Of a stretch of DNA of 64,000 bases, positions 2,304-52,905 are shown in pieces. The stretch is from Candidatus Omnitrophota bacterium. Its GTDB lineage: Bacteria; Omnitrophota; Gorgyraeia; Duberdicusellales; 4484-171. Numbering within the stretch: the first letter of the stretch is position 1; every line of letters begins with the position of its first letter. The translations under genes and the position numbers were made by a program. The stretch spans positions 325,464-389,463 of the forward strand of contig JBAWWL010000001.1 of NCBI GenBank assembly GCA_037146775.1. Direction: 5' to 3'. The notes beneath the pieces were generated by a model. That model ran no database searches. It saw only the letters and a list, made by a program, of their open reading frames with translations, and was not told the DNA's origin.

Positions 2304-5300
2304 TAATCGAGCCTTTTATCAAGAAAATATTACCAGATGATGTAGAGAGCCTGATGAATTTTAATCCACCCGGAGCCCTTGATAAATACAAGTCTATGCA
2401 TAATTTGCAGAAAGAGGGTGTAGCGGCGATCTATAACATACTTACGGAAAAGAATTTCGCTTATTTAGCGGATGAAGTTGGAATGGGGAAGACTTATCAG
2501 GCAATAGGGCTGATTACGCTGCTTTGGAATCTCAAAAGAAACGCGCGTATAGTAGTGATTTGTCCGCGGGTTAACCTGCAAATAAAATGGCAGCGTGATT
2601 ATCGAAATTTTATCATCAATAATTATCGCGGCCACATGAAAAAACAGGGCGATGATATCGTGAAGAGCGTTCTTTTGAATAAACCAGTGGTCAATCCACG
2701 TATTTGCCATAATCTGCGGCAATTTGCGTTGGAATTACAATCCCCAGAACGCCAACTATGTATTCTTCGCTATAGCTCATTTACGCGTCCCGTGTTTCTA
2801 AAAAGGGAAGATGAGCGTGATCCGCTAGGCGCATGGAACAATGCGGTTGAGATGATGAAGTTTTATGGTATCCATCCTTCTCATAAAGATAAGAGACTTG
2901 TAGAGGGGTGCGGCGATGGCATGTCGCTTCAATTCAATGAATGGTTTGCCGAAGCATTCAATGAAATGCTTGTCAATGCGTGCGAAAAAGAGAAAGGCAA
3001 AAAAGCGATCGATTTGCTGATATTTGACGAGGGGCAATATCTAAGGAATGAAAACCAGACGAACAGCGTTATACTTAAAGCTTTTGAAGGCAGAGTCAAT
3101 AAGTGGTTATTTCTGAGTGCGACGCCGATTCATTCCGGAAAAGAAAACATTCAAAATGTGATAAATCGATATGCCTGCCCAAAGTATATTGCTGATAGCG
3201 ATCTTGCTGATACAAAAAAGCTTCAAATTAAAATGAAGGAGTTCTTAGTCCGGCGTCCACGCGAATATTTTGTTCGAAATAGTACGGACAGAGATAAATT
3301 ATGGGCAAAATACAAATACCGTTACCATAATGAGGAAGAAAGCAAAATCAAGAATATGTCTCCTATGGAGTCGCTGGTAATGGCCGTAGTCCAAAAGAAT
3401 CTTGTAAAAATACTAGGAGGAAAGAATAACAGGTTTAAGATTGGATGTCTGACGTCTTTCGAAAGCTTGCAAGCCTCTGTGTACAACCAAGAAAACAAGA
3501 AAGCGCTGGCGTGCGATGATGAACAAGACGATGCGAACGAGGAAGCTGAAATAATGAAGTCGTCAGACTTATACGTGTCACAGGATGATGTAAAAAAAGG
3601 TCATGCCGAGGATCTAAAAGATATACCTGATATGAAATTCGTGGATGGGTTTGCACGACGTTATAAAAATACATTTGGCATAGAAATACCGCACCCAAAG
3701 GTTGACTTCGTAGTAGATCAGGTATCGAAAAAAGCGCTCAATAATGGCGAAAAATTTGTTGTTTTCACGCGAAGGATTAACGCCGTAGACGAGATCGTTC
3801 GTAGAATAAATGATGAATACGAAAAATGGATTAGGGAAAGAATTAATTCTGTGTGGAACATCGATATTGATGCCCTTTCAAAGAACCAAGGCACTGATCC
3901 CGACGAGATGATATCTGACGATCCTGATAGCGATGGTCTCGAAGCGCGCGGAAAAGGACTTCTTCAGGAGGCGAATCAAAAAGGAAATTGGCTTTTTCGG
4001 TATAGACAAACGTTCAGAGAAAGCGGTCGCAATGCCATGATGTTTGAAGAGAATTGGTTTAGATATTTTTCAGAAATTAATAATATACCTTTAAAAGATA
4101 TCGTTTCGAAAATACCCGATGAGCTTTGGAATGAAAGCTGGGTATTTGCGAATAGGCAAAAAGGGGCCAAAACAGCAAAAGTGATTCCATCCGAGAGATT
4201 CCAATATTTATTAGTGCAGACTGTAAAAAAATATCCCGAGATTCTTGGCCTAAAAGATGGAACCGTAAACAAGTGGCAAAACTTCTTTTCAAAGCGCTAT
4301 CCTTTGGTTACGGAACAACATTGTGGCGAGAAACAAAGAGCGAAGAATGAAAATCTGATCACGTATAAAGGTTTCTGGGACATCATTCGTGAAAAGATTT
4401 CTGAACCCCAAGGAGAGGTAATAAAGATATTCGATTTGATGAGAAAAAGTATGGATATTAATGACGAGAATGATCTTCTTAAAAGAGAGGTACTTAAAAA
4501 TTGTTTGTGGCAAACGATTCGATTGACAGATGCTATCCTTGATCTTTATTGCGCCAATGATACTGCCGGTGGCGCCAGTGCGCCTGTAGAAGATGCGGTA
4601 AATGAGTATTGCAAATATCTATTTGGTGATAGTGATTATGCGAAGCTTTTGAGAAACCAAATGAAAGAATGGGTAGAGCATATAGGTCTTATTTTGACAA
4701 ATTGTTTTAGCAATGATGATTTTGATTTAGCAGGTTATGCGGCCAGGGAAAGCTACGTCGAATTGCGCAATCCTCAATTTGCCGTTGGTATGACTGGAGG
4801 GAATCCAAACAAGACCGCCCTCAGTCAGTTTAAGACACCTGGTTACCCGAGAGTTATTGTGTGCACCGATATATTAAAGGAAGGCGAAGATCTTCACCTC
4901 TTCTGTGATCAGATTATTCATTATGGTGTAGCCTGGACATCTGGTGACTTGGAACAGCGGGTGGGAAGGATAGATCGTTACTTTTCAATGATTGAAAGAA
5001 AGCTTTACGGCTCTTCTAAACCAGAAAAAGAAAAATTGAATATTTATTACCCGCACTTGACTCAGTCGGTTGAAAAATATCAGATTGAAAGGGTTATCAA
5101 TCGTGCGAAAGAAGCGGAATTGATCATGGACAATATCGGTATTGATGAGCACACTGAGGGCAGGCAAATTGTCCTAGGAGTTATTGCAAATCGCCCCTTG
5201 GGCGTTGCGTTTTTAAACACGAAACCCGTTTTAGGCGAGCATCCCTTTACTCCGTCGTTTGCCAGTATAAAATCTTCAGGACTGCCGATTTTTTCAGAAC

Positions 5301-19825: not shown

Positions 19826-19846
19826 GGGTGGTATTTGGGTATAAAG
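19826..19846 (+). promoter_or_regulatory. conserved element-specific promoter/operator motif GGGTGGTATTTGGGTATAAAG
   Basis: lies about 33 nt upstream of the ATG at 19879; the same motif recurs upstream of three minus-strand operons. Confidence 0.45.
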
Positions 19847-19878
19847 TTTTTATATGTCGCCGTCACTACTCCTTAGTC

Positions 19879-21327: not shown

Positions 21328-22638
21328 TTAGGGTGTTTGTGTGGCTTTTTGTTTTTGGTCTACAAGCGCCATCATTTCCAGCATCATTTGTTTTTTCATG
21401 GAAGCAAACTGGTCATTGAGGAATTGCACTTGTTGTTGCAGATGCTGAATCTCTACATCTTTTTGCTTAGCCTCCTCAACAATAACCTGCCTATCCAAAG
21501 GACGCTTACAGTTTTGGCAAACCGTTTCGTCAAAACCCGCTGCCGTATTACAAAAAGCACAAGTCCTAGTGCCTAAACCCTCTTGGCCTTTAGAATCACC
21601 AGCCAAAAGTCCTCGCCTTTGCAATTCCTTCTTAAAAGCCTCATCCTGACTTGAGAGGTCATAGGTTTTTAGCTGGCTTGTGCTCGTCCATCTTGCCGCG
21701 TGTTGGATTTCCATGTCGCTTTCGCCCCTAAGCCTCCTAATCGTAACACCATTACGTTTGAGGCTGTAGCACGTCACGGGCTTAATGATCCCCAGATTCT
21801 TACAAGCAGTCCGAATAAACTTGTTAACGTTATTTGGCTTGAGCTGCTTCAACGCGTTAGTCGTCCCAATATTTACGAAAAGAAACGACTGCTTGTTGGC
21901 CTTGTTTGGGTGAATGCTCAGCCACTTTGCAAGGTAAGGGAAGCTGTCAATACACTGAATAAGGCCAGTTCCTTCCTTGCCATGCTCGCTAATGTAAATC
22001 TTGGCATAATTATCAAACAACTTAACATCCTCAAGCTTCACATAAAGAAGTTCTTGCGGCCTTGCCAAACTCTCAAGCGACAAAGTGAGGAAGGCTTGAA
22101 TCCTTGGGTCTTTACCAAAATAGCCAACGAGGCTTTCAAACTCTTCATGGCTGAACTTGTCCTTTCGCATCTTCTGCCGGCTCTTATCAATCTTTGGTGA
22201 GATGTGGCGCACAGCGTAAGGCACAAGCGTTCCGTCCGGCCTGCCCTTTTCGTCTTTTTCCGGAAACAAAACTTTCCAAACAAGCTTAAGCTCCCTGATA
22301 AAAGTCTCTTTGCTCTGGGGAGTATTATAGACTTGGTGCATTGCCGCCATCAAAGCATCCATATCATCCCTGTCGCACTCCGCAAAATCTTTAACAAAAA
22401 AGTTGCCCGCAAACTTCACACACTGAATAATCCGAAGCCTCCTAATAAAAGACAAATCCCTAGCCCCAAAATGATTAAACAACTTCAAATAATATTCTAG
22501 GTTTGGCTTATGCTTGCAAACATACTTAGAACGCCCATCATTGCCAGCGCAAGCAATGATGTTTCTAAAATCTGCCACAAAATGTTCATACCTTTTTTTG
22601 TTCCCATAAATATCGTCCTCTGCCATCTTACACACCAT
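21328..22638 (-). CDS. tyrosine site-specific recombinase/integrase with a C-terminal zinc-ribbon and coiled-coil extension
   Basis: box I 'LESLARPQELLYVKLEDV', box II 'HAARWTSTSQLKTY' (HxxR...Y); 'CAFCNTAAGFDETVCQNCKRP' zinc ribbon. Confidence 0.8.
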   Translation of the reverse strand: MVCKMAEDDIYGNKKRYEHFVADFRNIIACAGNDGRSKYVCKHKPNLEYYLKLFNHFGARDLSFIRRLRIIQCVKFAGNFFVKDFAECDRDDMDALMAAMHQVYNTPQSKETFIRELKLVWKVLFPEKDEKGRPDGTLVPYAVRHISPKIDKSRQKMRKDKFSHEEFESLVGYFGKDPRIQAFLTLSLESLARPQELLYVKLEDVKLFDNYAKIYISEHGKEGTGLIQCIDSFPYLAKWLSIHPNKANKQSFLFVNIGTTNALKQLKPNNVNKFIRTACKNLGIIKPVTCYSLKRNGVTIRRLRGESDMEIQHAARWTSTSQLKTYDLSSQDEAFKKELQRRGLLAGDSKGQEGLGTRTCAFCNTAAGFDETVCQNCKRPLDRQVIVEEAKQKDVEIQHLQQQVQFLNDQFASMKKQMMLEMMALVDQKQKATQTP

Positions 22639-23350: not shown

Positions 23351-23383
23351 AAAAGAAAAAAACTAAAAAAACAAGAATAAAAA

Positions 23384-23404
23384 CTTTACACCCAAATAAC
23401 ACCC
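23384..23404 (-). promoter_or_regulatory. conserved motif copy (minus strand reads GGGTGTTATTTGGGTGTAAAG)
   Basis: lies 34 nt upstream of the minus-strand start at 23350. Confidence 0.45.
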
Positions 23405-28946: not shown

Positions 28947-29152
28947 GACAACTCTCCTTTCTCCGGGACATCAACCCAGATTTCTCCGTCAAGGTCAACC
29001 CAATCCAAAACTTCAACAGTTTCGTCTTGCAACTTCCGCTTAGGCATCCACAACACAACCACCCCCTTTCTTTTTTGCGGCAGATACGTAATTCGTCCAT
29101 ATCTGTCTAATTTGTTTTTACAAAGGAGTGGTATCAAGACAAATTAATAAGT

Positions 29153-29173
29153 TTTACACCCAAAAAACACCCG
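29153..29173 (-). promoter_or_regulatory. conserved motif copy (minus strand reads GGGTGTTTTTTGGGTGTAAAA)
   Basis: upstream of the DUF2958-SpoVG minus-strand operon. Confidence 0.45.
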
Positions 29174-32232: not shown

Positions 32233-32267
32233 CTTAACTACACAGTAAAAACAAACCCATTAAAAAA

Positions 32268-32290
32268 GATTACACCCAAATAGCACCCGC
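32268..32290 (-). promoter_or_regulatory. conserved motif copy (minus strand reads GCGGGTGCTATTTGGGTGTAATC)
   Basis: lies 36 nt upstream of the start at 32232. Confidence 0.45.
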
Positions 32291-37787: not shown

Positions 37788-37988
37788 ATGTTTGCTATGG
37801 ACAAGAAGAGCAAGACTTACAACATTCCAAAGACGGCAGAGTTTCTTGGTGTGCATGAGATGACGATTCGGTATTGGATTCGCAAAAAATGGGTGACGCC
37901 TCAGCGCGATTACAGAAACTATCCTGTATTTACGGACGAGGACATAAAGAAGATTGAGCTGTGGCGTAACACTTTGAGGAAGCCATGA
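37788..37988 (+). CDS. excisionase-like HTH protein (candidate recombination directionality factor)
   Basis: 'IPKTAEFLGVHEMTIRYWIRKKWV' MerR/Xis-type HTH; 4-nt overlap with the recombinase start. Confidence 0.6.
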   Translation: MFAMDKKSKTYNIPKTAEFLGVHEMTIRYWIRKKWVTPQRDYRNYPVFTDEDIKKIELWRNTLRKP

Positions 37989-39619
37989 AAGTAGCGATAT
38001 ACACGAGAGTTTCTACTGAAGACCAAGTGCGTGAGGGGACTTCTCTTGAGGTTCAGAGGGAGTATCTTGAGGCTTTTGCCAAAAGAGAAGGATGGACAAT
38101 TTATTATCCTGAACGCGGAAAAATTTATATGGACGATGGTTACAGCGGGAACTTGCGGGATAGGCCAGCACTGAACCGGCTACTTTTTGATGCTAGGGCA
38201 AAAAAGTTTGACATTGTTCTGGTCTACAAGATAGATCGCTTTGCTAGAAATAATCGCATGCTCCTGAATCTTGTTGAAGAACTCAGCGAGCTAGAAATTG
38301 GTTTTAAAAGTGCAACAGAATCTTTTGATACAGTGAGTGCTGCTGGAAAAATGGCACTGAGCATGCTTGGAACAGTAGCACAGTTTGAGAGGGACAGAAT
38401 CATTGAGCGCGTATTTCCCGGAATGGTCAAAGGAGTCCAGCGCGGCAATTGGCAGGGCGCAAGATACTCGCCATACGGCTACAGCTACAACAAAGAAAAA
38501 AAAGTCCTCGAAGTAGTAAAAGAGGAAACGGAAATAGTCAAACTTATTTATACGATGTATCTTGCAAACCAAAGCACACCACAAATCGCGGGCTACCTAT
38601 ACAAGAAAGCATACAAGACCAGAAGCGGCGGAAAATTCCACACAAAACTCATAGGCGATATTTTGAAAAATCAGGTTTACTTGGGAAAGCTTGTGTGGAA
38701 CCGACACCACTATGACCAGAAGCAAAAGACAAGAAGGGGATACAAGTATGTAAAGAATGAAGCTTCGAAAATAATTGTTGCTGATGGAAGACACCAACCA
38801 ATAATAAATCCAGAAGATTTTTTGCTAGTACAAGACAAGCTAAAAGGCAACAGGCGAGGAGTCATGCATCGGGCAGGAGTAAAAGAATACCCCCTCTCAG
38901 GAATCTTGTTCTGCGCTAAGTGCGGCCACAAATATTTGGGAGCAGCAAACATATCTAATCATCGCGAAAAAATAAAGAAGAGATGGTACAGGTGCAACGC
39001 CCGCCAAGTACACTTCATCAAGTGCCCGAACAACTCTATTCGCGCAGAAATCTTAGAGCCACAAATTTATGGCATCATCGAAACCATCCTTCAACACCCA
39101 GAAACGACCTCTACGCGCATGCAAAACATAGTAAAGACGAGAATGGAGATAGGCGACACTGATCTCAAGGCAGAGAAAGAAGACTTGAAGGATGCTCTAC
39201 GAAAGAACCTTGAGAAGCAGCACAAGCTGAACGATACCTACTTAGCAGACCTCTTAGCAATAGAAGTATACAAAGACCAATCAATCCTTCTGCGCGAAGA
39301 AGAGAAGGAGCTAAAGAAGGCCATAGCCAAAGCAGACATGAAACTTGTCGAAAAAGAACGCTCACAAGAATACGAACGACTCCTGCGAAGAATTACAGAA
39401 AATTTTGAAGACACAAAGAAAAAAATAGATATAGTAACCAAAAAAGAGCTGCTTCAACTCGTATTCAAAAGAATAGTGGTAAATGACGGCAAAATAGAGG
39501 ACTTTGAACTATACAAGCCCTTCAAAAGGCTTTATGAGGAGCAAAAATGCAAGACAAAACCAATAGCGACAGCCACAAAGGACGACTCGTATATATTGCA
39601 ACCTACGGCTGTCAGATGA
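37985..39619 (+). CDS. large serine recombinase (integrase), 544 aa
   Basis: resolvase N-domain 'VAIYTRVSTEDQ...YMDDGYSGNLRDRPALNRLL...VLVYKIDRFARN'; recombinase domain; Zn-ribbon 'CAKCGHK...RCNARQVHFIKCP'; coiled coil. Confidence 0.9.
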   Translation: MKVAIYTRVSTEDQVREGTSLEVQREYLEAFAKREGWTIYYPERGKIYMDDGYSGNLRDRPALNRLLFDARAKKFDIVLVYKIDRFARNNRMLLNLVEELSELEIGFKSATESFDTVSAAGKMALSMLGTVAQFERDRIIERVFPGMVKGVQRGNWQGARYSPYGYSYNKEKKVLEVVKEETEIVKLIYTMYLANQSTPQIAGYLYKKAYKTRSGGKFHTKLIGDILKNQVYLGKLVWNRHHYDQKQKTRRGYKYVKNEASKIIVADGRHQPIINPEDFLLVQDKLKGNRRGVMHRAGVKEYPLSGILFCAKCGHKYLGAANISNHREKIKKRWYRCNARQVHFIKCPNNSIRAEILEPQIYGIIETILQHPETTSTRMQNIVKTRMEIGDTDLKAEKEDLKDALRKNLEKQHKLNDTYLADLLAIEVYKDQSILLREEEKELKKAIAKADMKLVEKERSQEYERLLRRITENFEDTKKKIDIVTKKELLQLVFKRIVVNDGKIEDFELYKPFKRLYEEQKCKTKPIATATKDDSYILQPTAVR

Positions 39620-40809
39620 ATGTTCGCGATAGCGAGGCGCTTCTGGGGCTTTTTTTAGAAAAAGGTTATAAACAAGCGCGGGGTTATGAAGACGCAGACG
39701 TAATCTTGCTTAATACTTGTTCGGTACGTGCTCACGCCGAACATCGCGTCCAGTCCATTATAGGCTCTTTTAAGAAACTATTCAGACTCAATACTCACGA
39801 CTCGCGACTAAATACTAAAAAAATAATTGGCCTTATTGGTTGCATGGCACGTAGTCAAGGCCAGGAAATTTTTAAGCGTATGCCGCATGTAAATTTGATC
39901 TGTGGGCCGGCAAGTTTGCATAAAATACCGGAATATGTAGATAGGATCTCAAAGCGCAAAGTGCAAAGTGTAAAACAAGAAAACAACTTACGAATAATTG
40001 ATTTAGAGGATATAGACAGGGAGGAAGAATTTTACGATGCTGGATTTAGGGTAGACTCGGATCATGCGCAGGTAGTGATCTCAACTGGTTGTTCTAACCA
40101 CTGCTCTTACTGTGTGGTTCCTTTTGTGCGAGGCGCGTTGCGCTTACGCGCTCCGCAGGATATTATCGCAGAAGTTAAGCGTAATGTCGTACTTGGTATC
40201 AAAAAAATTACACTTCTGGGGCAAAATGTGAATGATTACCAATTTAACCCACAGTCTATAGTTTGCGGTAGACACGCTAAAAATGTTATACTCAATACTC
40301 AATACTCACAACTCAATACTAAAGTTAATTTTGTTGATTTATTAAAAATGGTAGAAGAAGTAGAGGGGGTTGAGGAAATTGATTTTCTTACACCACATCC
40401 TAAAAATACGACCAAAGAACTATTTAAATTAATGGCCAAATCAAAGAAAATAAAAAAGTACTTACATTTGCCATATCAGGCCGGTTCTGATAGAATCTTA
40501 AAGCTTATGAATAGGGGTTACACCAAGAAAGAATATCTTACGTTAGCAAAGGACTATAAAACTATTGTCGGCGGCACTATAGGAACGGATATCATAGTTG
40601 GTTTTCCTACTGAAACCGAGGAAGATTTTCAACATACCAGAGATATTTTAGAAAAAGTTAAGTTTATGGGCGCCTATATTTTTAAATATTCACCCCGTCC
40701 CCATACAGAAGCTTTAAGCTTGGATGATAATGTTTCTTTGGCAGTTAAAGAAAAACGCCACAAGATCCTTTTAGATTTACAAAAAGAGATTTCAAATTCA
40801 TGCAGATAA
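39547..40809 (+). CDS. miaB: MiaB-family tRNA methylthiotransferase (radical SAM); C-terminal TRAM domain apparently absent
   Basis: 'VYIATYGCQMNVRDSE', 'LLNTCSVR', radical-SAM 'GCSNHCSYCVVP'; 420 aa; 5' end overlaps the recombinase 3' end. Confidence 0.75.
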   Translation: MQDKTNSDSHKGRLVYIATYGCQMNVRDSEALLGLFLEKGYKQARGYEDADVILLNTCSVRAHAEHRVQSIIGSFKKLFRLNTHDSRLNTKKIIGLIGCMARSQGQEIFKRMPHVNLICGPASLHKIPEYVDRISKRKVQSVKQENNLRIIDLEDIDREEEFYDAGFRVDSDHAQVVISTGCSNHCSYCVVPFVRGALRLRAPQDIIAEVKRNVVLGIKKITLLGQNVNDYQFNPQSIVCGRHAKNVILNTQYSQLNTKVNFVDLLKMVEEVEGVEEIDFLTPHPKNTTKELFKLMAKSKKIKKYLHLPYQAGSDRILKLMNRGYTKKEYLTLAKDYKTIVGGTIGTDIIVGFPTETEEDFQHTRDILEKVKFMGAYIFKYSPRPHTEALSLDDNVSLAVKEKRHKILLDLQKEISNSCR

Positions 40810-42506: not shown

Positions 42507-43775
42507 ATGCACGAAACACAAAAGCAGGAAAAAGCTATTCTGGTAATGGTAGAAATGGGAAAAGAGAAATGGTCCCACGAAATCTTAGCCGAGGAATTTA
42601 AGCATTTGGTTGTTTCTGCCGGCATTGAAGTGAAAGAGATGATAACGGCTAAACGCCACGAAGTGAATCCTGCCCTTTATATAGGAAAGGGTAAAGTAGA
42701 AGAATTAGCACTTCTAGTCAAAGAGGAGGGTGTTGATACGGTTATTTTCAATAATAACCTCGGTGTTAGTCAACAGCGTAATCTTGAGGATGTTTTTGGT
42801 GTTAAGACGATTGATCGTACCCAGCTTATCCTGGATATCTTTGCCGCGCATGCCCGCAGCCAGGAAGGTATTTTACAGGTTGAGTTAGCTCAGCTTGAGT
42901 ATCTTTTACCTCGGCTTAAAGGCAAAGGCACAATGCTTTCTCGGCTTGGCGGTGGTATTGGAACCCGCGGTCCTGGCGAAAAGAAGCTTGAAATCGACCG
43001 GCGATGCATTAGCGATCGCATTACCAGTTTAAAGTATGAAATAAGCGCGCTAAGCCAGCATCGCGAAACTATGAGGAAAAAAAGGGAAAAAGAAAATATC
43101 GCCATATGCTCGCTGGTGGGTTATACCAGTGCAGGGAAAACTACAGTATTTAACGCCCTTACTGAAAGCAACGAGAAAACATCCGGTTCTTTGTTTACAA
43201 CGCTTGATACGGTAAGCCGGGTATTCCCGGTGCATAATACCGTAAAAGCGATTCTTACTGATACCGTTGGTTTTATTTATAAGTTGCCGCTTAATCTGGT
43301 CGAAGCGTTCAAAGCGACGCTGGAGGAATTAAACTATGCAGACGTATTGTTACATGTGGTAGATGTCGCCAGCAATGACATTAATCGTTTGCTGAATTCT
43401 GTCGGTTCTACCCTGGAGGAGCTTAAGCTTGAAACGAAACCGACGATTCTGGTATTTAACAAAATCGATAAAGTGTCGTCGCAGTATGTAGAACAGCTTC
43501 AGCGCCAATTTCCCGAAGCAGTCTTCGTATCGGCATTAGAAAAAACAAATCTTGAGGTTTTGCGGGAACGGATATATCAGATGATCGGTAAAGACACGGT
43601 TGAGGCGATCATAAAGTTTCCTTTTACCCGTATGGAGCTGGTTAACTTTTTGCACGCCAACTGCGAAATTATGAAAACGAATTATCAAGAGAACGAAGTG
43701 GTGTATTGGGTGAAGACAAAACAACCCTTCTTGGCATACATAGCAAAACAGGGCGCGCAGGTTAAAAAAATGTAA
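42507..43775 (+). CDS. hflX: GTPase HflX
   Basis: 'GTRGPGEKKLEIDRR', G-domain 'VGYTSAGKTT', 'DTVGFI', 'NKID'. Confidence 0.9.
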   Translation: MHETQKQEKAILVMVEMGKEKWSHEILAEEFKHLVVSAGIEVKEMITAKRHEVNPALYIGKGKVEELALLVKEEGVDTVIFNNNLGVSQQRNLEDVFGVKTIDRTQLILDIFAAHARSQEGILQVELAQLEYLLPRLKGKGTMLSRLGGGIGTRGPGEKKLEIDRRCISDRITSLKYEISALSQHRETMRKKREKENIAICSLVGYTSAGKTTVFNALTESNEKTSGSLFTTLDTVSRVFPVHNTVKAILTDTVGFIYKLPLNLVEAFKATLEELNYADVLLHVVDVASNDINRLLNSVGSTLEELKLETKPTILVFNKIDKVSSQYVEQLQRQFPEAVFVSALEKTNLEVLRERIYQMIGKDTVEAIIKFPFTRMELVNFLHANCEIMKTNYQENEVVYWVKTKQPFLAYIAKQGAQVKKM

Positions 43776-43873
43776 AGACGCTTTTTTGTCTGCCCTCGAA
43801 AACAACGCCTGCCATCAGGTGGCTCGGCCACGTCATTATTGCTGTAGTTTTACAATACTGTATCGTACAATAT

Positions 43874-44122
43874 TTAATCGACGCGCAGATAACCCTGGCA
43901 AAGCCAGGGTTAAAATGCGCCAAAGATTATCTTCCGGGATGCCTTTATACCGTGAAAATTTTGATAGAAAATTTTTACGGAGCATCACGGAACCTATTGG
44001 CCGACGAGGTTGCGGGAAATTCTCTTCGACAATTTCCCGCATATCCAGCCGAGTCGGGAATATCCAGAGAAACCACGGGCTTTAGTTCAGCAGGCCGAAG
44101 GCCTGGTGGATAGCCCGTGGAG
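43874..44122. repeat. structured intergenic repeat, copy A (249 nt; contains a 69-nt insertion relative to copy B)
   Basis: near-identical to 51293..51472; hairpins 'ccctggcaaagccaggg', 'gcgggaaatt-N9-aatttcccgc', 'ggccgaaggcc'. Confidence 0.6.
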
Positions 44123-44161
44123 TTTAATTTAATAAATACTTCAATATTTTTTAATAAATAG

Positions 44162-44177
44162 TTTGAAATTTTTCAAA
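44162..44177. promoter_or_regulatory. perfect inverted repeat TTTGAAA-tt-TTTCAAA just upstream of the -35 of the MerR-like gene (candidate operator)
   Basis: palindrome read directly from the sequence. Confidence 0.35.
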
Positions 44178-44184
44178 TAAAATA

Positions 44185-44213
44185 TTGACAGAAAATTAAA
44201 AATATGTTATACA
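44185..44213 (+). promoter_or_regulatory. sigma70-type promoter TTGACA-N17-TATACA ending 9 nt before the ATG at 44223 (near-leaderless)
   Basis: consensus -35 hexamer, 17-nt spacer and -10-like hexamer. Confidence 0.45.
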
Positions 44214-44222
44214 TTATTTGAG

Positions 44223-44510
44223 ATGAGAGGAGGCAAGAAAAAAGCAAAACCTGGCTTTGAGATTGATATACCGCAGGACGAGCCGGTATTTCCTTTGAAT
44301 GTAGTATGTAATCTCGTGCACCTGCACTACTGGACATTACATGAAATTTTAAAAGAGGGGATAGTGGAACCGAGGAAAAAAGGCAAGAATAAAAAACTAT
44401 TTTCCTATCAGGACATTAAGCAGCTTAAATATGTAAAATACCTTATAGAAGATAAAGGGGTTAATATTAAAGGAGTAAAAATAATCTTAGAAATGCGAGA
44501 CGAAGAATAA
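44223..44510 (+). CDS. MerR-family transcriptional regulator, HspR-like (sits upstream of clpB)
   Basis: 'VFPLNVVCNLVHLHYWTLHEILKEGIVEPRK...KLFSYQDIKQLKYVKYL' MerR HTH architecture; position as in hspR-clpB loci. Confidence 0.55.
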   Translation: MRGGKKKAKPGFEIDIPQDEPVFPLNVVCNLVHLHYWTLHEILKEGIVEPRKKGKNKKLFSYQDIKQLKYVKYLIEDKGVNIKGVKIILEMRDEE

Positions 44511-44528
44511 AAAATTTTTGATCCGTAT

Positions 44529-44555
44529 TTAGCACTCTCAAGGCAGAAGTGCTAA
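44529..44555. promoter_or_regulatory. CIRCE element (HrcA operator) upstream of clpB
   Basis: TTAGCACTC-tcaaggcag-AAGTGCTAA against the consensus TTAGCACTC-N9-GAGTGCTAA (one mismatch). Confidence 0.65.
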
Positions 44556-44671
44556 GAAGGGTGTTATTTTTAAGATAGTACTTTCTAAACAATAGATAAA
44601 ATATTATTAGCCGGAAGGGTGATTTGAACAATATCTAATTAAGGGAAAAGTTTTGTCCAAGGAGGACAGAA

Positions 44672-47254
44672 ATGAACTTAGAAAATTTTACCCTAAAAGC
44701 ACAGGAAGCCATTACTAGGGCGGTTGCGATAGCTAAAGAGTATCACCAGCAAATACTTTTGCCGGAGCATATTTTAGCTGCCTTACTTGAAGATTCCCGG
44801 GGTATTGCTCGGGAAATCTTTGGCAAAATAGCGGTAGATACTCGGGATATAGGCGGCAAAGCCCAGGAGTTTCTCAAGAATCAGCCTAAGGTGTATGGCC
44901 AGAGCAAAGAAGTGCAGGCTGCTGGTCGCTCGGTGGATGTGTTAAATGATGCTAAGCGTTACGCAAAAGATTTTGGCGACGAATATGTGAGCTCCGAACA
45001 TCTTTTGTTGGCGATAGTTAAAGATCGAAGCGGTTTCCTGTATGAATATTTTTCCAAGCAAGGTATAGCTTTTGACGATGTGCTGCGTATTGTTAAAGAA
45101 GTGCGTTCCGGGCATCAGGCAGATTCGGCATCTGCCGAAGACACTTACCGGGCATTAGAAAAGTTTGGCAAAGATTTAACTGAGCTGGCTAAAAAAGGAA
45201 AACTCGATCCGGTTATAGGCAGAGACCAGGAAATTCGTCGTCTTATCCAGGTTCTGAGTCGAAGAACAAAAAATAACCCCGTTTTAATCGGTGAACCTGG
45301 TGTAGGGAAGACTGCTATAGCCGAAGGCCTGGCCCAGCGTATTTCTCTCGGCGATGTTCCGGAAGGCTTAAAAGACAAGAAAATTATTGCGTTAGACCTT
45401 GGTGGCCTTGTGGCCGGCACGAAATTCCGCGGTGAATTCGAAGAACGCCTCAAAGCGGTATTAAAAGAGGTCGAAGCCAAGGAAGGGGAAATCATTCTTT
45501 TTATCGACGAACTGCATCTTTTGGTCGGCGCAGGAGCTGCCGAGGGGGCAGTCAGTGCGGCGAATATGTTAAAGCCGGCATTGGCTAAAGGTATATTACG
45601 TTGTATTGGCGCAACCACGCTTGATGAATACCGTAAATATATCGAGAAAGACGCAGCGCTTGAGCGCAGATTTCAGCCTGTGATGGTTGAGGAGCCTAGC
45701 GTAGAACAAACTATCGCCATCCTAAGAGGCTTAAAAGAAAAATACGAGGTTCATCACGGTATACGCCTGAAAGATTCTGCCATCATAGCGGCGGCGGTAT
45801 TGTCCGACCGTTATATTAGCGAGCGTTTCTTACCCGATAAAGCTATCGATCTGATTGATGAGGCAGCGTCAAAATTACGTATTGAGATTGACTCAAAGCC
45901 TGAAGAGGTAGATAAGCTTGAGCGTAAGATCGTGGAATTGGAAATCCAGAAACAGGCTTTGATAAAAGAAAAGGATGAGGCCGGGAAGGAACGGTTCAAG
46001 AAAGTAGAAGAAGAAATCGGTCAGCTTTCAAGAGAGCTGAACGCATATAAAGAGCATTGGCAGAAAGAAAAAGAGCTGATTACAAAAATACGTAAAGCAA
46101 AAGAAGAAATCGAAGCGCTTAAATTAGCTTCTGTAGAATTACAAAAAGAAGCTCAGCTTGATAAGGTTGCCGAGATACGTTATGGCAAGGTTCCTAAGCT
46201 CAGTAAAGAAGTGGATGAGTTGAACAAGGAACTTATAAAGCTGCAGAAAAAAGACAAAATGCTTAAAGAGGAAGTCGACGAAGAGGATATCGCGGAAATT
46301 GTCAGTCGCTGGACAGGTGTTCCGGTCTCGCGCTTGATGGAAGAAGAGGTCGCAAAATTAGTGCGTATGGAAGATGAATTAAGAAAGCGGGTGGTGGGCC
46401 AAGACAATGCGATTAAGGTAATCTCAGACTGTATCCGCAGGTCCCGTTCCGGCTTGGCAGACCCGGCGCATCCTCTTGGTTCTTTCATTTTTCTGGGACC
46501 GACCGGTGTCGGCAAAACCGAGTTGGCAAAAGCTTTGGCCTGGTTTTTGTTCAACAGCGAACACAATTTGATCAGGATCGACATGAGTGAGTATATGGAA
46601 AAATTTTCTGTGTCGCGCTTGCTCGGTGCGCCTCCCGGCTACGTCGGTTATGATGAGGGAGGGCAATTGACCGAACAGGTGAGAAGAAAACCATACGCAG
46701 TGGTGCTTTTCGATGAGATTGAAAAAGCACATCCAGATGTGTTTAATGTGCTGCTGCAAGTGCTTGATGACGGCCGCTTAACCGATTCGCAGGGCCGGAT
46801 CGTGAATTTCAAAAATACGGTCATTATTATGACCTCCAACATTGGCAGTGAATATTTTAATGATCCTACTATGTATCAGAAGGGCATAGAAGAGAAGATC
46901 AGGGTAGAGCTAAAGAAGTATTTCCGTCCGGAATTCATTAACCGGTTAGATGAAATTATTATCTTTAACCAACTGGATCTGGAAGCAATTAAACATATTG
47001 TGGATATTCAGGTGGATATCCTAAAAGAAAGATTGAAAGATAGAAAAATAGCGGTAGAATTAACTCCAAAAGCTCGAGAATTTATCGCCGAGAAAGGTTA
47101 TAGTCCCGAATATGGCGCACGGCCGCTCAAGCGAACTATCCAGAAGTTGATCGTTGATCCTTTGAGTGTTAAACTGATCAGTGCAGAATTTATCGATAAT
47201 GACACTGTCATTGTTGACGTTCAGAATAAAGAAATTAGTTTTAGAAAGAAGTAA
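44672..47254 (+). CDS. clpB: ATP-dependent chaperone ClpB
   Basis: two AAA+ modules '[15 protein letters not shown]' and '[15 protein letters not shown]', with a coiled-coil middle domain. Confidence 0.95.
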
Positions 47255-47266
47255 GAAAGGAGAGCT

Positions 47267-47605
47267 ATGCGAGTTGAGGTGACGTATAAGAATGTAGAGA
47301 AAAGCGAATTTCTGGAAAATGTAATTGATAAGGATTTAGAAAAGATAGGGCGAAGGATCCAGATGTTTCGAGAAAATGACCCGATACATATTACCGTGCA
47401 TCTTGAAAAGAGCCAGCATTGCGAAGAATATCTCTGTAATTCCCATATTTATCTGCCCAAGCGAGTTTTGAGGGCAGATAGCCGCGAAAGTAATATGGCT
47501 ACAGCGATCAACAAAGCATTTGCTGCGTTAGCGAAACAGTTAGAGAAGCTTAAATGTAAAGTTGAAGCGCATCTAAAAAGAAGAGATACCCGGCAAACCC
47601 GTTAA
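47267..47605 (+). CDS. hpf: ribosome hibernation-promoting factor (HPF/RaiA family)
   Basis: 'MRVEVTYKNVEKSEFLENVIDKDLEKIGR...IHITVHLEK...ATAINKAFAALAKQLEKLKCK'. Confidence 0.65.
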   Translation: MRVEVTYKNVEKSEFLENVIDKDLEKIGRRIQMFRENDPIHITVHLEKSQHCEEYLCNSHIYLPKRVLRADSRESNMATAINKAFAALAKQLEKLKCKVEAHLKRRDTRQTR

Positions 47606-47745
47606 GATTGCTTGCTTAAAGCTTGTTGCATTCAAAAAGCTTCATAGCCAGGGAAAACTTAAGAAACCAAAACTTGACTATAAAAACTTTATATGTTAAT
47701 ATTTTTGGCACTCTCCAGCTATATTTGCTAAACATGAGGTAATAT

Positions 47746-48483
47746 ATGGTAAGAAGCTTAGATACCAGAGAACGCGAAACGGAAATTTTAAATTTAATAG
47801 TGGACAGTTATATTAGGGAGTCTAAGCCCATAAGCTCAAGTCATCTGTGCCAGCAATACCATCTTCCTTATTCCTCGGCAACGGTGCGCAATGTCATGGA
47901 GAACCTCGAACAAAAAGGTTTTCTTTCTCACATACATACTTCTTCGGGCAGGGTTCCTACGAGAGCCGGTTTTAAATATTATGTAGAGCACCTAAAAGAA
48001 GATGAAATGGCCAAGGATTATCCTATAGTATTTGATTTTGAGACAGAAATAGCCGATATCAACGGAGTCATCAACCATGCCTTAAACATTCTTGCTCAAA
48101 GCAGCGGTTACACGTCTTTTTTGGCTCTAGCCGGCCGCGACGAAAAATTATTTTTTCGCGGCGCACGTTTTATGCTTGAACAACCGGAATTTGAAGACAT
48201 GCATAGACTGAAAAACGTATTTTACGCTTTGGAAATGAAATTGTCACAGCTACAGGATTTGCTATCGCACTATTTTAATAATGGCATAAAAATCCTTGTA
48301 GGCGACGAAATAGGTTTCGCGGAGATTTCCGATTGTTCTTTAGTGGTCTCTGGTTCAAGCGACGATCGATTCTCTTTTACGCTTGCATTGCTTGGCCCGA
48401 TGCGGATGGATTATGTTAAGGCTGCGTCGTGCCTTTATACGACAAAGAGGCAGTTTAGAGAAGTCATGGAAAGTTATCTATGA
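47746..48483 (+). CDS. hrcA: heat-inducible transcription repressor HrcA
   Basis: 'RETEILNLIVDSYIRESKPISSSHLCQQY...SSATVRNVMENLEQKGFLSHIHTSSGRVPTRAGFKYYV'. Confidence 0.85.
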   Translation: MVRSLDTRERETEILNLIVDSYIRESKPISSSHLCQQYHLPYSSATVRNVMENLEQKGFLSHIHTSSGRVPTRAGFKYYVEHLKEDEMAKDYPIVFDFETEIADINGVINHALNILAQSSGYTSFLALAGRDEKLFFRGARFMLEQPEFEDMHRLKNVFYALEMKLSQLQDLLSHYFNNGIKILVGDEIGFAEISDCSLVVSGSSDDRFSFTLALLGPMRMDYVKAASCLYTTKRQFREVMESYL

Positions 48484-49115
48484 GCGAACACGATAAAAAT
48501 AACGCGAAAGAACCGTTGCCGGAAGAAGTTGTAGAAAAACTTCAGCAAGAAGGCAATAAAGAACAAACTGAGGCGCCCGGAGAAGATTATCAGGCTCTCT
48601 GGAACAAATACGTACGTGCGTGCGCTGATTTTTCCAATGCCCGTAAGCGTTGGGACAGGGAAAAGGAAGATATTGTTAAATTTTCCAACTCTTCTTTGAT
48701 GCGGGATCTTTTAATAATACTTGATGAAACAGAGCAGGCGTTGAAGATGGCAGCAACGCATCATAGCAGCGAAGATATTCTCAAAGGTTTAGAGATGACC
48801 TATAATAATTTTATCGGTGTGCTCAAAAAAAGAGGTTTGCAGGCGATTACGGCAGTAGGAAAAGATTTTGATCCGCATTTTCATGAAATTATTGCGACTA
48901 AAGAAGTAGACTCCAATATTTCAAAACCAGTTGTGCTTGAAGAAATTCAGAAGGGTTACTTGTTCGAAGATAAAGTTTTGAGGTCGGCGAAGGTAATTGT
49001 GGGGATACAGAGAGAAGAACAAAAGGCAGATAACAAAGAACAGAAGGCAGATAGTAAAGGGCAAAAGACGGATAATAAAGGTCAGAAGGCAGAAAAATCT
49101 GATTCCGGACTCTGA
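48480..49115 (+). CDS. grpE: nucleotide exchange factor GrpE
   Basis: 'DFSNARKRWDREKED', 'LLIILDETEQAL', 'GKDFDPHFHEIIA', 'QKGYLFEDKVLRSAKVIVG'. Confidence 0.8.
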   Translation: MSEHDKNNAKEPLPEEVVEKLQQEGNKEQTEAPGEDYQALWNKYVRACADFSNARKRWDREKEDIVKFSNSSLMRDLLIILDETEQALKMAATHHSSEDILKGLEMTYNNFIGVLKKRGLQAITAVGKDFDPHFHEIIATKEVDSNISKPVVLEEIQKGYLFEDKVLRSAKVIVGIQREEQKADNKEQKADSKGQKTDNKGQKAEKSDSGL

Positions 49116-49250
49116 CCTCTGGCTACCGACATCTGATTTCCGAAAATAGACATCCTATAAAGATCAGGATGTTTTGATTTGAGAAGATTAGGGGCAAGAT
49201 TGCGCAGATTGTTTTAGAGAGAATTCTGTATAGAACGTTTAGAAACTTTT

Positions 49251-49286
49251 AATCTGTGTAATCGGTTTTAAATCAGTGTAATCAGG
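49251..49286. promoter_or_regulatory. two direct copies of AATC(T/A)GTGTAATC(G/A)G spaced 20 nt apart, immediately upstream of a TATAAT and an 8-bp inverted repeat in front of dnaK
   Basis: 'aatctgtgtaatcgg' at 49251; 'aatcagtgtaatcagg' at 49271; TATAAT at 49287; IR 'ggtataat/attatacc' at 49285..49308. Confidence 0.35.
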
Positions 49287-49332
49287 TATAATCCTACTAA
49301 ATTATACCTGAAGATTATACCAGGAGGTTGCT

Positions 49333-51258
49333 ATGGCACGTGTAATAGGTATTGATTTAGGAACTTCAAATTCTGCGGCAGCAGTTATGGAAGGAGACAG
49401 GCCGGTGATTATTCCTTCTGCCGAAGGTGCTGGTGTGGCCAGCGGTAAAGCATTCCCTTCCTTTGTTGCGTTTACAAAAGATGGCCAACGATTGGTGGGT
49501 GAGCCGGCCAAGCGACAAGCCTCTATAAACCCGGAAGGAACTATATATGCCGCAAAACGTAAAATGGGTACTGATTATAAATTCCAAGTTCACGGCAAAG
49601 AATATACGCCGCAGCAAATTTCCGCGTTCATTTTGCAAAAAATCAAACAGGACGCCGAAGGCTATTTAGGCGATAAGATCGAGGAAGCTGTCATTACCTG
49701 TCCGGCATATTTTGATGATAACCAGCGGCAAGCCACAAAAGATGCCGGTGAAATAGCCGGGTTAAAAGTGCTGCGTATTATTAATGAACCTACCGCAGCT
49801 TGTCTTGCTTATGGTTTAGAGAAGGCGGGCAAAGAATTAAAAATTTTGGTATTTGATTTTGGCGGCGGAACGCTCGATGTCACAATTATGGAAATGTGGA
49901 AAGAGGGTGGTTTTAAGGTTATCTCGACCAACGGCGATACTCAGCTGGGTGGAACCGACATGGATAACGTCATGATTGATTATGTCGCGAAAGAATTTAA
50001 GCGCGATACCGGTATAGATATTAAGAATGACAAAATGGCTATGCAACGTGTTCGTGAGGCGGCAGAAAAAGCAAAGGTTGAACTTTCGAGTACCTTGACC
50101 ACAGATATTAATCTTCCTTTTATTACCGCAGACGCTTCCGGGCCGAAACATTTAACTATGTCGATTAATCGAGCTAAGCTCGAAGAATTGGTGGGGCCGA
50201 TCATTGATCGTTGTCGCGGTCCTCTGGAACGTGCGTTGGCAGACGCTAAGGTAACCTTTGAAAAAGAAGGGGTAAAATTCGACGATAAAGATGTTGATAA
50301 GATCATCATGGTTGGCGGTCCAACCCGCATGCCGATTGTTCAGAAGTTCGTTGAAGATTATTTCGGTAAAAAAATTGAGCGCGGAGTGGATCCGATGGAA
50401 TGCGTTGCGCTCGGTGCGGCAATCCAGGCAGCTATTATCAAGGGCGACGTAAAAGATGTGTTACTTTTGGATGTCACGCCGCTATCTCTGGGTATTGAAA
50501 CGCTCGGCGGAGTTAATACTAAACTTATTGAGCGTAATACCACCATCCCGACCAGAAAAAGCCAGATTTTTTCAACCGCGGCAGATAATCAAACTGCGGT
50601 TACCATCAGGGTATTGCAGGGAGAAAGGGCGATGGCTGATGACAGTGTGGAGCTGGGTAGATTTAATTTAGAAGATATACCGCCTGCGCCGCGCGGTTTA
50701 CCGCAGATTGAAGTAACTTTTGACATTGACGCCAATGGTATAGTTCACGTTTCCGCTAAAGACAAAGGAACCGGGAAAGAGCAGTCGATAAAGATCACCG
50801 CTCCGCATAAACTGTCTAAGGAAGAAATTGATAAAATGGTTCACAATGCAGAAAAATTTGCTTCCGAAGACGTTAAGAGAAAAGAGCAAGTTGAGGTCAT
50901 AAACCAGGCGGATAATCTGGTTTACGCTACCGAGAAATCTTTAAAAGACTATGGTGACAAGGTCAGCCAGGGGGAACGTGCGAACATCGAATCAAAAATT
51001 AATGAACTTAAGACCGCGATTAAAGACAAAAATACCGAGCGTATTAAAAAAGAAATAGAAGAGTTAGGCAAAGTTTCGCACAAGTTAGCGGAGGAGATTT
51101 ACAAACAGGCAGCGCAAAAACAGCAGCAGCAAGGTTCTCAGGCCGGTCCTCAAGAGCAGAAAACGGCAGAGGGTGCGCAGAAGGCAGAAGAAGAGCCAAA
51201 AGCGAACAAGGAAGACATTATAGACGCGGACTTCAAAGAAGAAGACGGGAAAAAATAA
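49333..51258 (+). CDS. dnaK: molecular chaperone DnaK (Hsp70)
   Basis: '[10 protein letters not shown]', 'DLGGGTLDV' and other Hsp70 motifs read along the full length. Confidence 0.97.
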
Positions 51259-51292
51259 AAAAGCAAATATCAGAAAATTTGATTTTTGCATT

Positions 51293-51472
51293 TTAATCGA
51301 CGCGCAGATAACCCTGGCAAAGCCAGGGTTAAAATGCGCCAAAGATTATCCCGACGAGGTTGCGGGAAATTGTCGAAGAGAATTTCCCGCATATTCAGCC
51401 GAGTCGGGAATATCCAGAGAAACCACGGGCTTTAGTCCAACAGGCCGAAGGCCTGGTGGATAGTCCGCGGAG
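51293..51472. repeat. structured intergenic repeat, copy B (180 nt), filling the dnaK-dnaJ spacer
   Basis: near-identical to copy A; the hairpin loop at 51372..51380 is the exact reverse complement of the copy-A loop; ends in a T-rich tract. Confidence 0.6.
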
Positions 51473-51488
51473 GTTCATTTTTTAAATT

Positions 51489-52668: not shown

Positions 52669-52905
52669 ATGCCAACCTACGACTATGAATGTCAAAAGTG
52701 CGGTAAGCGTACCGAGGTGTTTCATAAAATGAGCGAAACGTCGCTCAAGGCGTGCCCTGCCTGCAAGGGCAAGTTGAAAAAAATGATCAGCGCGGGTAGT
52801 GGATTGATATTTAAGGGGAGTGGTTTTTATATTACCGATTATAAAAAAAATAGATCAGGCGATACCAAAGAGAAACCTGCCTCCAAGAGCGCACATAAAA
52901 AATAA
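52669..52905 (+). CDS. FmdB-family zinc-ribbon protein
   Basis: 'MPTYDYECQKCGKRTEVF...CPACKG'. Confidence 0.7.
   Translation: MPTYDYECQKCGKRTEVFHKMSETSLKACPACKGKLKKMISAGSGLIFKGSGFYITDYKKNRSGDTKEKPASKSAHKK

Follow-up and report, generated by a model that had tools for sequence, protein, structure and literature searches.

Two hairpin-rich elements in a heat-shock gene cluster of Candidatus Omnitrophota: probable copies of a mosaic interspersed repeat

Palindrome-associated transposable elements (PATEs) are derivatives of the IS200/IS605 family of insertion sequences (IS) that carry no genes and depend for their movement on a Y1/HUH transposase acting in trans. In IS608, left cleavage occurs 19 nt 5′ of the left hairpin and right cleavage 10 nt 3′ of the right hairpin, and the transposase recognises these hairpins as structures in single-stranded DNA (PMC3201880). 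Repeats of a second kind, the BIME, ERIC and BOX sequences of proteobacteria and pneumococci, are also built of hairpins. Internal insertions of ~70 bp, at fixed sites, are known in ERIC, and REP/BIME sequences are landing sites for IS1397 and IS621. The subject of this report is a pair of hairpin-rich elements in a 64-kb stretch of DNA, hereafter the window, from a Candidatus Omnitrophota bacterium (assembly GCA_037146775.1, contig JBAWWL010000001.1, positions 325,464 to 389,463). Copy A lies between hflX and the gene of a MerR/HspR-like regulator, and copy B lies between dnaK and dnaJ.

Both elements are likely to belong to a family of non-coding interspersed repeats of Candidatus Omnitrophota, modular and rich in hairpins, rather than to be a heat-shock device. 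The repeat is of a known sort, a mosaic of hairpins that is probably PATE-like; the family itself is undescribed and comes from an uncultivated phylum. Like PATEs, its members are ~200 nt long, intergenic and oriented as the leading-strand genes, both window copies being on the G-rich strand that bears nearly all genes. A top strand on the gene-rich leading strand is the orientation expected of the IS200/IS605 family, for which two copies are too few to weigh. Like BIME, ERIC and BOX, the repeat is composed of modular hairpin units with sharp presence/absence boundaries, is intergenic and is probably co-transcribed with an operon in the case of copy B; it differs from them in its unrelated sequence, its phylum and a copy number that may be low. 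REP units, at 20-40 nt, are much shorter.

The evidence is much stronger for a selfish or neutral mosaic repeat than for any specific single-strand mechanism of movement. A first-pass annotation of the window had listed a MITE-like (miniature inverted-repeat transposable element) mobile repeat among three possible identities. The mobile repeat has stood, on the evidence of empty sites, unrelated contexts and assembly breaks; the likeness to a MITE is looser, as the terminal inverted repeats of a classical MITE are lacking. For annotation, the result removes a tempting but wrong reading of a structured RNA that controls the heat-shock cluster. For assembly, it is a reminder that short-read assemblies are interrupted at such repeats, which also give rise to spurious small open reading frames (ORFs).

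Empty sites, family members and a secondary invader

The closest DnaJ relatives are only ~75% identical, and their contigs keep the gene order miaA-hflX-merR-clpB-hpf-hrcA-grpE-dnaK-dnaJ. The spacers that hold the element in the window are much shorter in two of these relatives, L028 and L031: the hflX-merR spacer measures 138 nt in L028 vs 447 nt here, and the dnaK-dnaJ spacer 94 nt in L028 and 66 nt in L031 vs 239 nt here. There is no trace of the repeat in either orthologous spacer of L028 or in the dnaK-dnaJ spacer of L031. The conserved architecture of the cluster thus does not include the element, and the comparison of spacers shows it to be lineage-specific at both sites.

Related elements are found in at least five other metagenomic sequences (L034, L035, L040, L043 and P0244), beside unrelated genes. 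One of them, L034, comes from a metagenome scan seeded with the open + frame of copy B, which gave at least this one confirmed locus. The location of the copies beside heat-shock genes looks coincidental. The absence of the element from the syntenic relatives, and the unrelated contexts of its family elsewhere, argue against an alternative in which the copies are a structured RNA linked to heat shock and tune the expression of merR-clpB and dnaJ as an attenuator, an RNA thermometer or a paralogous small RNA. That alternative is quite improbable. It draws some support from the conservation of the unpaired linkers between the window and L034.

The right part of L034, from hairpin 2 through the linker and hairpin 3 to the tail AGGTTCATT, is ~90% identical to that of the window copies, and it directly follows an IS1182-family transposase gene. 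Removal of this IS and of one TTTA duplication restores an intact hairpin 1, and thereby a complete element, whose predicted fold is that of the window copies. L035, L040 and L043 are diverged members with their parts in the same order. P0244, a spurious 110-aa ORF from run SRR4030042, is a member known from its translation only; it translates the 3′ arm of hairpin 1, a 69-nt module that is otherwise seen in copy A (22 of 23 residues as in copy A) and a diverged start of the right part. The module stands at the same position in this unrelated metagenome and is therefore a recurrent optional module, not one private to copy A.

The order of parts is constant throughout: hairpin 1, the optional module, hairpin 2 within a closing stem, a purine-rich linker, hairpin 3 and a tail. 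Two short motifs are conserved across otherwise diverged members. One, GGGGATGAATGSG, occurs as GGGGATGAATG(C/G)G just past the hairpin-1 tip, where the window copies have a diverged AGGGTTAAAATGCG; the other, AG(G/C)TTCA(Y) or AGSTTCA, lies just 3′ of hairpin 3. The stem of hairpin 3 has 8 bp and is capped by a tetraloop. Among six members, four of the eight pairs show changes on both sides and 95.8% of cells are paired, a value reached in 1 of 500 shuffles; the alignment was hand-trimmed, with the nested insertion of the window copies removed. Such covariation shows that hairpin 3 has been kept by compensatory changes. Within a member, the hairpin-1 tip resembles hairpin 3. In L034, TCCCTGGAC-TTTA-GTCCGGGGA is matched by CCACGGGC-TTTA-GCCCGTGG, and the two tip loops are both TTTA in L040 and are GTGA and GTAA in L043. 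Hairpin tips also carry insertions, of 12 nt in the hairpin-2 loop of L034 and of 28 nt in the hairpin-3 TTTA loop of both window copies. The aligned members thus show that modules come and go with precise boundaries.

Searches of viral, phage and plasmid sequences gave no matches. A search of species-representative genomes with the hairpin-2 palindrome pattern returned 23 unrelated hairpins, many of them terminator-like and mostly from Candidate Phyla Radiation (CPR) genomes; the window genome was not among the matches.

The transposon that interrupts hairpin 1 of L034 recurs in other members. IS1272 and members of the IS1182 family insert into hairpins, as does TnSha1 (PMC4923244). The Omnitrophota IS1182-family element, ~1.65 kb long with ends CAGAYTGGGTCAWAT and ATWTGACCCRGYYTG, conforms to this published behaviour: it lies within a hairpin at all eight sites examined (L034, L035, L036, L037, L038, L040, L043 and L044), and its flanks form a split hairpin at every one. 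At four of these eight independent insertions the target is the hairpin-1 loop of a repeat member (L034, L035, L040 and L043), with the IS in L035 in the opposite orientation relative to the repeat; L038 is a lone hairpin-1-like hairpin, and the remaining targets are other hairpins. Duplications of 4 bp (TTTA, TTTA, GTGA and TAGG) flank the IS, which is usually in the loop. In this respect the element differs from IS1272, for which cutting of the stem, partial deletion of the target and no duplication have been reported (PMC4923244), whereas here loop insertion with a 4-bp duplication is seen at most sites. Repeated landing in one particular hairpin loop extends the published hairpin targeting of the IS1182 family and may help define its choice of target.

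This association suggests another origin for the repeat, as a MITE of the IS1182-family element whose fused left and right inverted repeats form hairpin 1. Indeed the halves of hairpin 1 in L034 flank the IS1182-family transposase gene and resemble 45-nt terminal inverted repeats. The proposal is nevertheless very improbable and was rejected. The IS copies of L035 and L036, which encode identical transposases, are 100% identical only from CAGATTGGGTC... to ...CCCAGCCTG, that is, inside the CAG...CTG ends, and are unrelated outside; the outer 'repeats' are therefore target DNA. In addition, the 4-bp duplication flanks the IS inside the loop, and the intact hairpin of the window copies is an empty target, not a deletion product. 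The IS1182-family element is, on this comparison of insertion sites, a secondary invader of the repeat and not its parent.

A separate observation concerns the 28-nt insertion in hairpin 3 of the window copies (44086-44113 and 51436-51463). It is bounded by TAG...TAG, and it has CAG...CTG ends similar to those of the IS1182-family element. Speculatively, it might be an excision footprint.

Anatomy of the two copies

Copies A and B are direct repeats on the + strand, as found by a repeat finder run on the whole window and by pairwise alignment (Table 1). Their left parts (43873-43931 and 51292-51350) are identical at 59 of 59 positions, and their right parts (44001-44137 and 51351-51487) are 90% identical across 137 nt. 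The surplus of copy A over copy B is exactly 69 nt, lies between the two matching parts, precisely where hairpin 1 meets the right part, and has its own hairpin. The first-pass annotation was thus correct in seeing two near-identical structured elements beside heat-shock genes, in assigning an extra hairpin-bearing 69 nt to copy A, and in each of the three hairpins that it named. No third copy or fragment was found in the 64-kb window or in the 10 kb past its right end. The window sequence is also contained in contig CAZTHQ010000016.1 of the metagenome-assembled genome (MAG) GCA_964613555.1, from a Candidatus Omnitrophota bacterium.

Table 1. Positions of the repeat copies, their parts and neighbouring features (window coordinates unless a contig is named)
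Feature	Position	Strand	Remarks
Copy A, 265 nt	43873..44137	+	boundary shared with the family 43873-44129; resemblance reaching 44137 is with copy B alone
Hairpin 1, copy A	43875..43929	+	TAATC...GATTA, three-stem composite, tip ACCCTGGC-AAA-GCCAGGGT
Optional 69-nt module, copy A only	43932..44000	+	60-nt hairpin with 11-nt inverted ends TTCCGGGATGC/GCATCACGGAA, plus CCTATTGG linker
Right part, copy A	44001..44129	+	closing stem CCGAC/GUCGG around hairpin 2, linker ATATCCAGAGAAA, hairpin 3, tail AGTTTAATT
Hairpin 2, copy A	44011..44041	+	loop CTCTTCGAC; flipped relative to copy B and L034
Hairpin 3, copy A	44073..44120	+	CCACGGGC...GCCCGTGG, nested 28-nt insertion at 44086-44113
Copy B, 196 nt	51292..51487	+	boundary shared with the family 51292-51479
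Hairpin 1, copy B	51294..51348	+	within the 59-nt left part 51292-51350, same as copy A
Right part, copy B	51351..51479	+	tail AGGTTCATT, identical in L034
Hairpin 2, copy B	51361..51391	+	loop GTCGAAGAG; orientation as in L034
Hairpin 3, copy B	51423..51470	+	same nested 28-nt insertion, 51436-51463
IS1182-family IS	L034:306-1962		
IS1182-family IS	L035:2893-4548		
IS1182-family IS	L040:2893-4527		
IS1182-family IS	L043 ~2082-3728		
miaA	41554-42459		Pfam
hflX	42507-43775		Pfam; 5′ neighbour of copy A
Inverted repeat TTTGAAATTTTTCAAA (44162-44177) and TTGACA-17-TATACA promoter-like site (44185-44213)	44162..44213	+	outside the repeat, upstream of the merR/hspR-like gene
MerR/HspR-like regulator, 95 aa	44223-44510		Pfam; 3′ neighbour of copy A
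CIRCE (HrcA operator), 1 mismatch	44529..44555	+	outside the repeat, between the merR-like gene and clpB; 0.01 chance matches expected
clpB	44672-47254		Pfam; followed by hpf, hrcA, grpE
Degenerate CIRCE TTGGCACTC-N9-ATTTGCTAA	~47697-47725		after a promoter-like site, upstream of hrcA
dnaK	49333-51258		Pfam; 5′ neighbour of copy B
dnaJ	ATG at 51498		Pfam; 3′ neighbour of copy B

The differences between the copies had been described as a handful of substitutions. Most of them amount to one event: the 31-nt hairpin 2 (TGCGGGAAATT-N9-AATTTCCCGCA) of one copy is, according to the repeat finder, the exact reverse complement of that in the other, so that the loop is flipped. Such a flip of a perfect palindrome takes place at the level of DNA. 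The more distant relative L034 has the loop as in copy B, whose orientation is therefore probably ancestral and that of copy A derived. The flip means, in turn, that the sequence of the loop is unconstrained, which is difficult to reconcile with a heat-shock RNA.

Both copies are strongly structured relative to dinucleotide shuffles. The + strand of copy B folds with −95.7 kcal/mol (z = −9.3) and its − strand with −83.4 kcal/mol (z = −7.1); copy A reaches −119.5 kcal/mol (z = −9.2). The greater stability of the + strand, and the orientation of both copies as their flanking genes, are what a functional RNA might be expected to show. Hairpin 1 of copy A is homologous to the L034 hairpin that the IS1182-family element splits. 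The nested 28-nt insertion of hairpin 3 is itself a hairpin, CAGGCC-GAA-GGCCTG, where L034 has a plain TTTA loop. The + frame is open through the element, yet it is altered by the flipped hairpin and in copy B is without a start codon; the element is without coding capacity.

Copy B had been taken for the whole dnaK-dnaJ spacer. It is not: ~33 nt, including a small hairpin, precede it, and ~10-18 nt follow before the dnaJ start codon. The T-rich tails that had been noted at the ends of the copies are present, but they are not terminator-like by consensus scan; in copy B the T-run begins 9 nt past the stem.

It is scarcely credible that the second copy is an artefact of assembly or binning, a chimeric duplicate made by the assembler, even though the source is a metagenome-assembled genome. 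The copies differ by substitutions, the flipped hairpin and the 69-nt module. Moreover, the Logan assembly of SRR12676968, an independent short-read assembly of the same organism, shows the same unique flanks entering both copies. Its contigs break inside both, as expected of repeated DNA.

The two ~93% identical direct copies, at the two ends of 43873-51487, bracket a 7.2-kb merR-clpB-hpf-hrcA-grpE-dnaK block. Recombination between these homologous copies could in principle delete or tandemly amplify the block.

How the repeat may move

The anatomy of the repeat suggests that it is probably the remnant of a non-autonomous transposon of the single-strand type, PATE-like in character. It would be a derivative of an IS200/IS605-type element, and a HUH/Y1-type transposase supplied in trans would move it as single-stranded DNA. 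By insertion or by copying, it would have entered two intergenic spacers of a gene cluster that is otherwise conserved. If the single-strand reading is correct, the family could be a lead to systems of the IS200/IS605 and TnpB types in Omnitrophota.

Movement as a single strand is suggested by the lack of terminal inverted repeats and of a clear target duplication, together with hairpins near both ends at IS608-like spacing. In the window copies and L034, 17-19 nt separate the left boundary from the foot of the tip hairpin, and 9-10 nt separate the foot of hairpin 3 from the right boundary, compared with 19 and 10 nt in IS608 (PMC3201880). The 9-10 nt that follow hairpin 3 form the conserved tail, AGSTTCAY. 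As in PATEs, a hairpin is present near each end on the same strand, and the two resemble each other in each member, as the TTTA loops of L034 and L040 illustrate. PATEs are likewise without terminal inverted repeats or a clear target duplication. In the present repeat the left end, TTTAATCGACGCGCAG, and the reverse-complemented right end, AATGAACCTCCGCGG, do not match, and all inverted repeats are internal hairpins. Its lack of terminal inverted repeats distinguishes it from a classical MITE, for which, in addition, a full-length parent with the same ends was not found. At copy A, CAATATTT abuts the left end and recurs ~14 nt past the family-level right boundary, in AT-rich flanks where short matches are weak; there is nothing comparable at copy B or L034. 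The left flanks end in ATATT (copy A), CATTT (copy B) and CCTTT (L034) and have only a T-run in common across these three sites.

Several observations weigh against the proposal of a mobile, PATE-like repeat. Some are departures from PATEs themselves. No conserved 4-nt target is seen at the three sites beyond the T-rich left flank (ATT/TTT). No TnpA or TnpB with the ends of the repeat, nor any other transposase with matching ends, was found, and the only transposon that touches the family, the IS1182-family element, has different ends. The 17-19 nt before the tip hairpin pair with downstream sequence into one long hairpin 1, an arrangement undescribed for IS608 left ends. Conservation between metagenomes is higher in the 69-nt module than in its neighbours, including the ends, and in this the module is unlike a decaying internal remnant. 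A pseudo-protein read through the element had no TnpB match in Pfam, NCBIfam, a word-indexed protein search or a full HMMER search. Other objections bear on mobility and on the family. The 74 kb of this genome that were covered contain only two copies; the relatives with empty sites are at roughly genus-to-family distance, leaving loss as a possibility; and the alignment of diverged members is partly hand-made.

It is also conceivable, although unlikely, that the repeat is a PATE that has kept the scaffold of a TnpB-type omega-RNA, or guide RNA. The right part (~130 nt, ending 9-10 nt past the last hairpin) would then be transcribed into the flanking DNA, and a TnpB supplied in trans would be guided to the dnaJ start by copy B or to the merR promoter region by copy A. 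EVAG and GFSP 'codons' are retained in the open + frame of the window copies, L034 and L040, with changes at third positions (GAGGTTGCGGG vs GAGGTCGCCGG), as would fit a relic of the 3′ end of tnpB. The string 'GASRNLLA' in the copy-A frame resembles the RuvC-III motif. As a sign of a TnpB relic it was rejected: there was no TnpB match in these searches, and the top HMMER matches were chance similarities to fibronectin-III-like repeats.

Three other kinds of element were considered and rejected. The differences between the copies are not adenine-specific and the element is non-coding, in disagreement with the template and variable repeats of a diversity-generating retroelement. An integron attC site would have R″/R′ core sites, of which there are none, and no intI gene is nearby. 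A retron non-coding RNA was dismissed as no adjacent reverse transcriptase gene was seen.

The heat-shock cluster and its control

The cluster appears, from its genes and candidate operators, to combine HrcA/CIRCE control with a MerR/HspR-like regulator. Matches to the CIRCE pattern TTAGCACTC-N9-GAGTGCTAA occur once in the window, outside both copies, and this site is likely to be the heat-shock cis-element of clpB. The inverted repeat upstream of the merR/hspR-like gene is kept, with its AT-rich flank, in the relative L028, which is without the repeat. The promoter-like site that follows it was read by eye; the consensus scan omits it, its −10 hexamer ending in A. The CIRCE and the inverted repeat at the merR promoter are thus already candidate heat-shock operators, both outside the copies.

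With a terminator-like hairpin of hflX (43819-43831) on its 5′ side and the conserved merR-clpB promoter on its 3′ side, copy A is outside the heat-shock transcript. Copy B is necessarily co-transcribed if dnaK and dnaJ form one operon, a point in favour of a regulatory RNA. The consensus scan found no promoter- or terminator-like sites within either copy, the nearest terminator-like site being the hflX hairpin. The Rfam scan that had been recommended gave no family match: with Rfam 15 there was none at the gathering score in the whole window, and E-value mode over 43700-44300 returned only chance-level similarities (E ≥ 1).

The response to temperature was examined by folding at 20, 30, 37, 42 and 50 °C, with copy B joined to the start of dnaJ and copy A extended through that of merR. 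The hairpins of copy B are predicted to remain intact at all of these temperatures, with a mean unpaired probability of 0.31-0.33 across the element. Between 20 and 50 °C the predicted mean unpaired probability of the start region rises from 0.41 to 0.55 for dnaJ and from 0.41 to 0.50 for merR. Both structure and ribosome-binding-site accessibility are therefore nearly constant, and the thermosensor behaviour that the first-pass annotation had envisaged does not appear. The resemblance of the repeat to RNA thermometers (ROSE, fourU), CIRCE and HAIR is confined to its location near heat-shock genes. It differs from RNA thermometers in that its stems are long and G+C-rich, stay unmelted in silico to 50 °C and do not cover the ribosome-binding site. 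With copy A outside the heat-shock transcript, CIRCE elsewhere, a fold almost unchanged from 20 to 50 °C, and neither an Rfam match nor a promoter or terminator consensus inside the element, no support is found for a paralogous small-RNA gene or for a terminator or attenuator tied to heat-shock expression.

The hairpins of copy B could, to judge from their predicted stability, slow read-through or mRNA decay in a dnaK-dnaJ transcript; there is no evidence tying any such effect of copy B to temperature. By analogy with REP sequences, an element of selfish origin may have been domesticated, copy B being retained as an mRNA hairpin that sets the dnaK:dnaJ ratio. This is a doubtful proposal. In its favour, L028 and L031, which do not have the repeat, carry a different long perfect hairpin in the dnaK-dnaJ spacer, so that strong structure seems to be the rule there. 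Such other hairpins are, however, common in the intergenic DNA of these genomes and hence possibly neutral, and the same rationale is missing for copy A. A mosaic repeat that lies in the two spacers by chance remains the preferred explanation.

The hairpin in the dnaK-dnaJ spacer of the relatives (L028:9907-10000 and L031:7016-7081) is long and near-perfect and is made of CAGCTGA/TAGCTGA-like heptamers. A similar palindrome of TAGGTTA/TAACCTA heptamers is found in this genome at L042:15036-15394, where it flanks a tiny basic ORF in a 360-nt spacer. Heptamer-rich flanks of a similar kind also occur near some of the unrelated hairpins of CPR genomes. At the far end of L042 (from ~19900, ~20 kb beyond window position 52880) the MAG contig stops within a 16S rRNA gene, which accounts for the break at that point.

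Heptamers are seen within a gene as well. The miaB-like radical-SAM gene at 39616-40809 contains in-frame runs of ACTCAAT-like heptamers (ACTCAATACTCACGACTCGCGACTAAATACTAAA and a relative) at 39786-39819 and 40290-40323, which look like low-complexity insertions within the coding sequence. The stretch at ~18300-39620 is probably an integrated mobile element. It encodes an HNH endonuclease, a HerA-like ATPase, a Replic_Relax protein and an MT-A70 methyltransferase (called in L001), as well as a tyrosine integrase (21328-22638, − strand) and a large serine recombinase (37985-39619). A ~20-37-nt motif, TTTACACCCAAATAACACCC, recurs within it at 19826-19853 (− strand), 23368-23404, 29136-29172 and 32252-32288.

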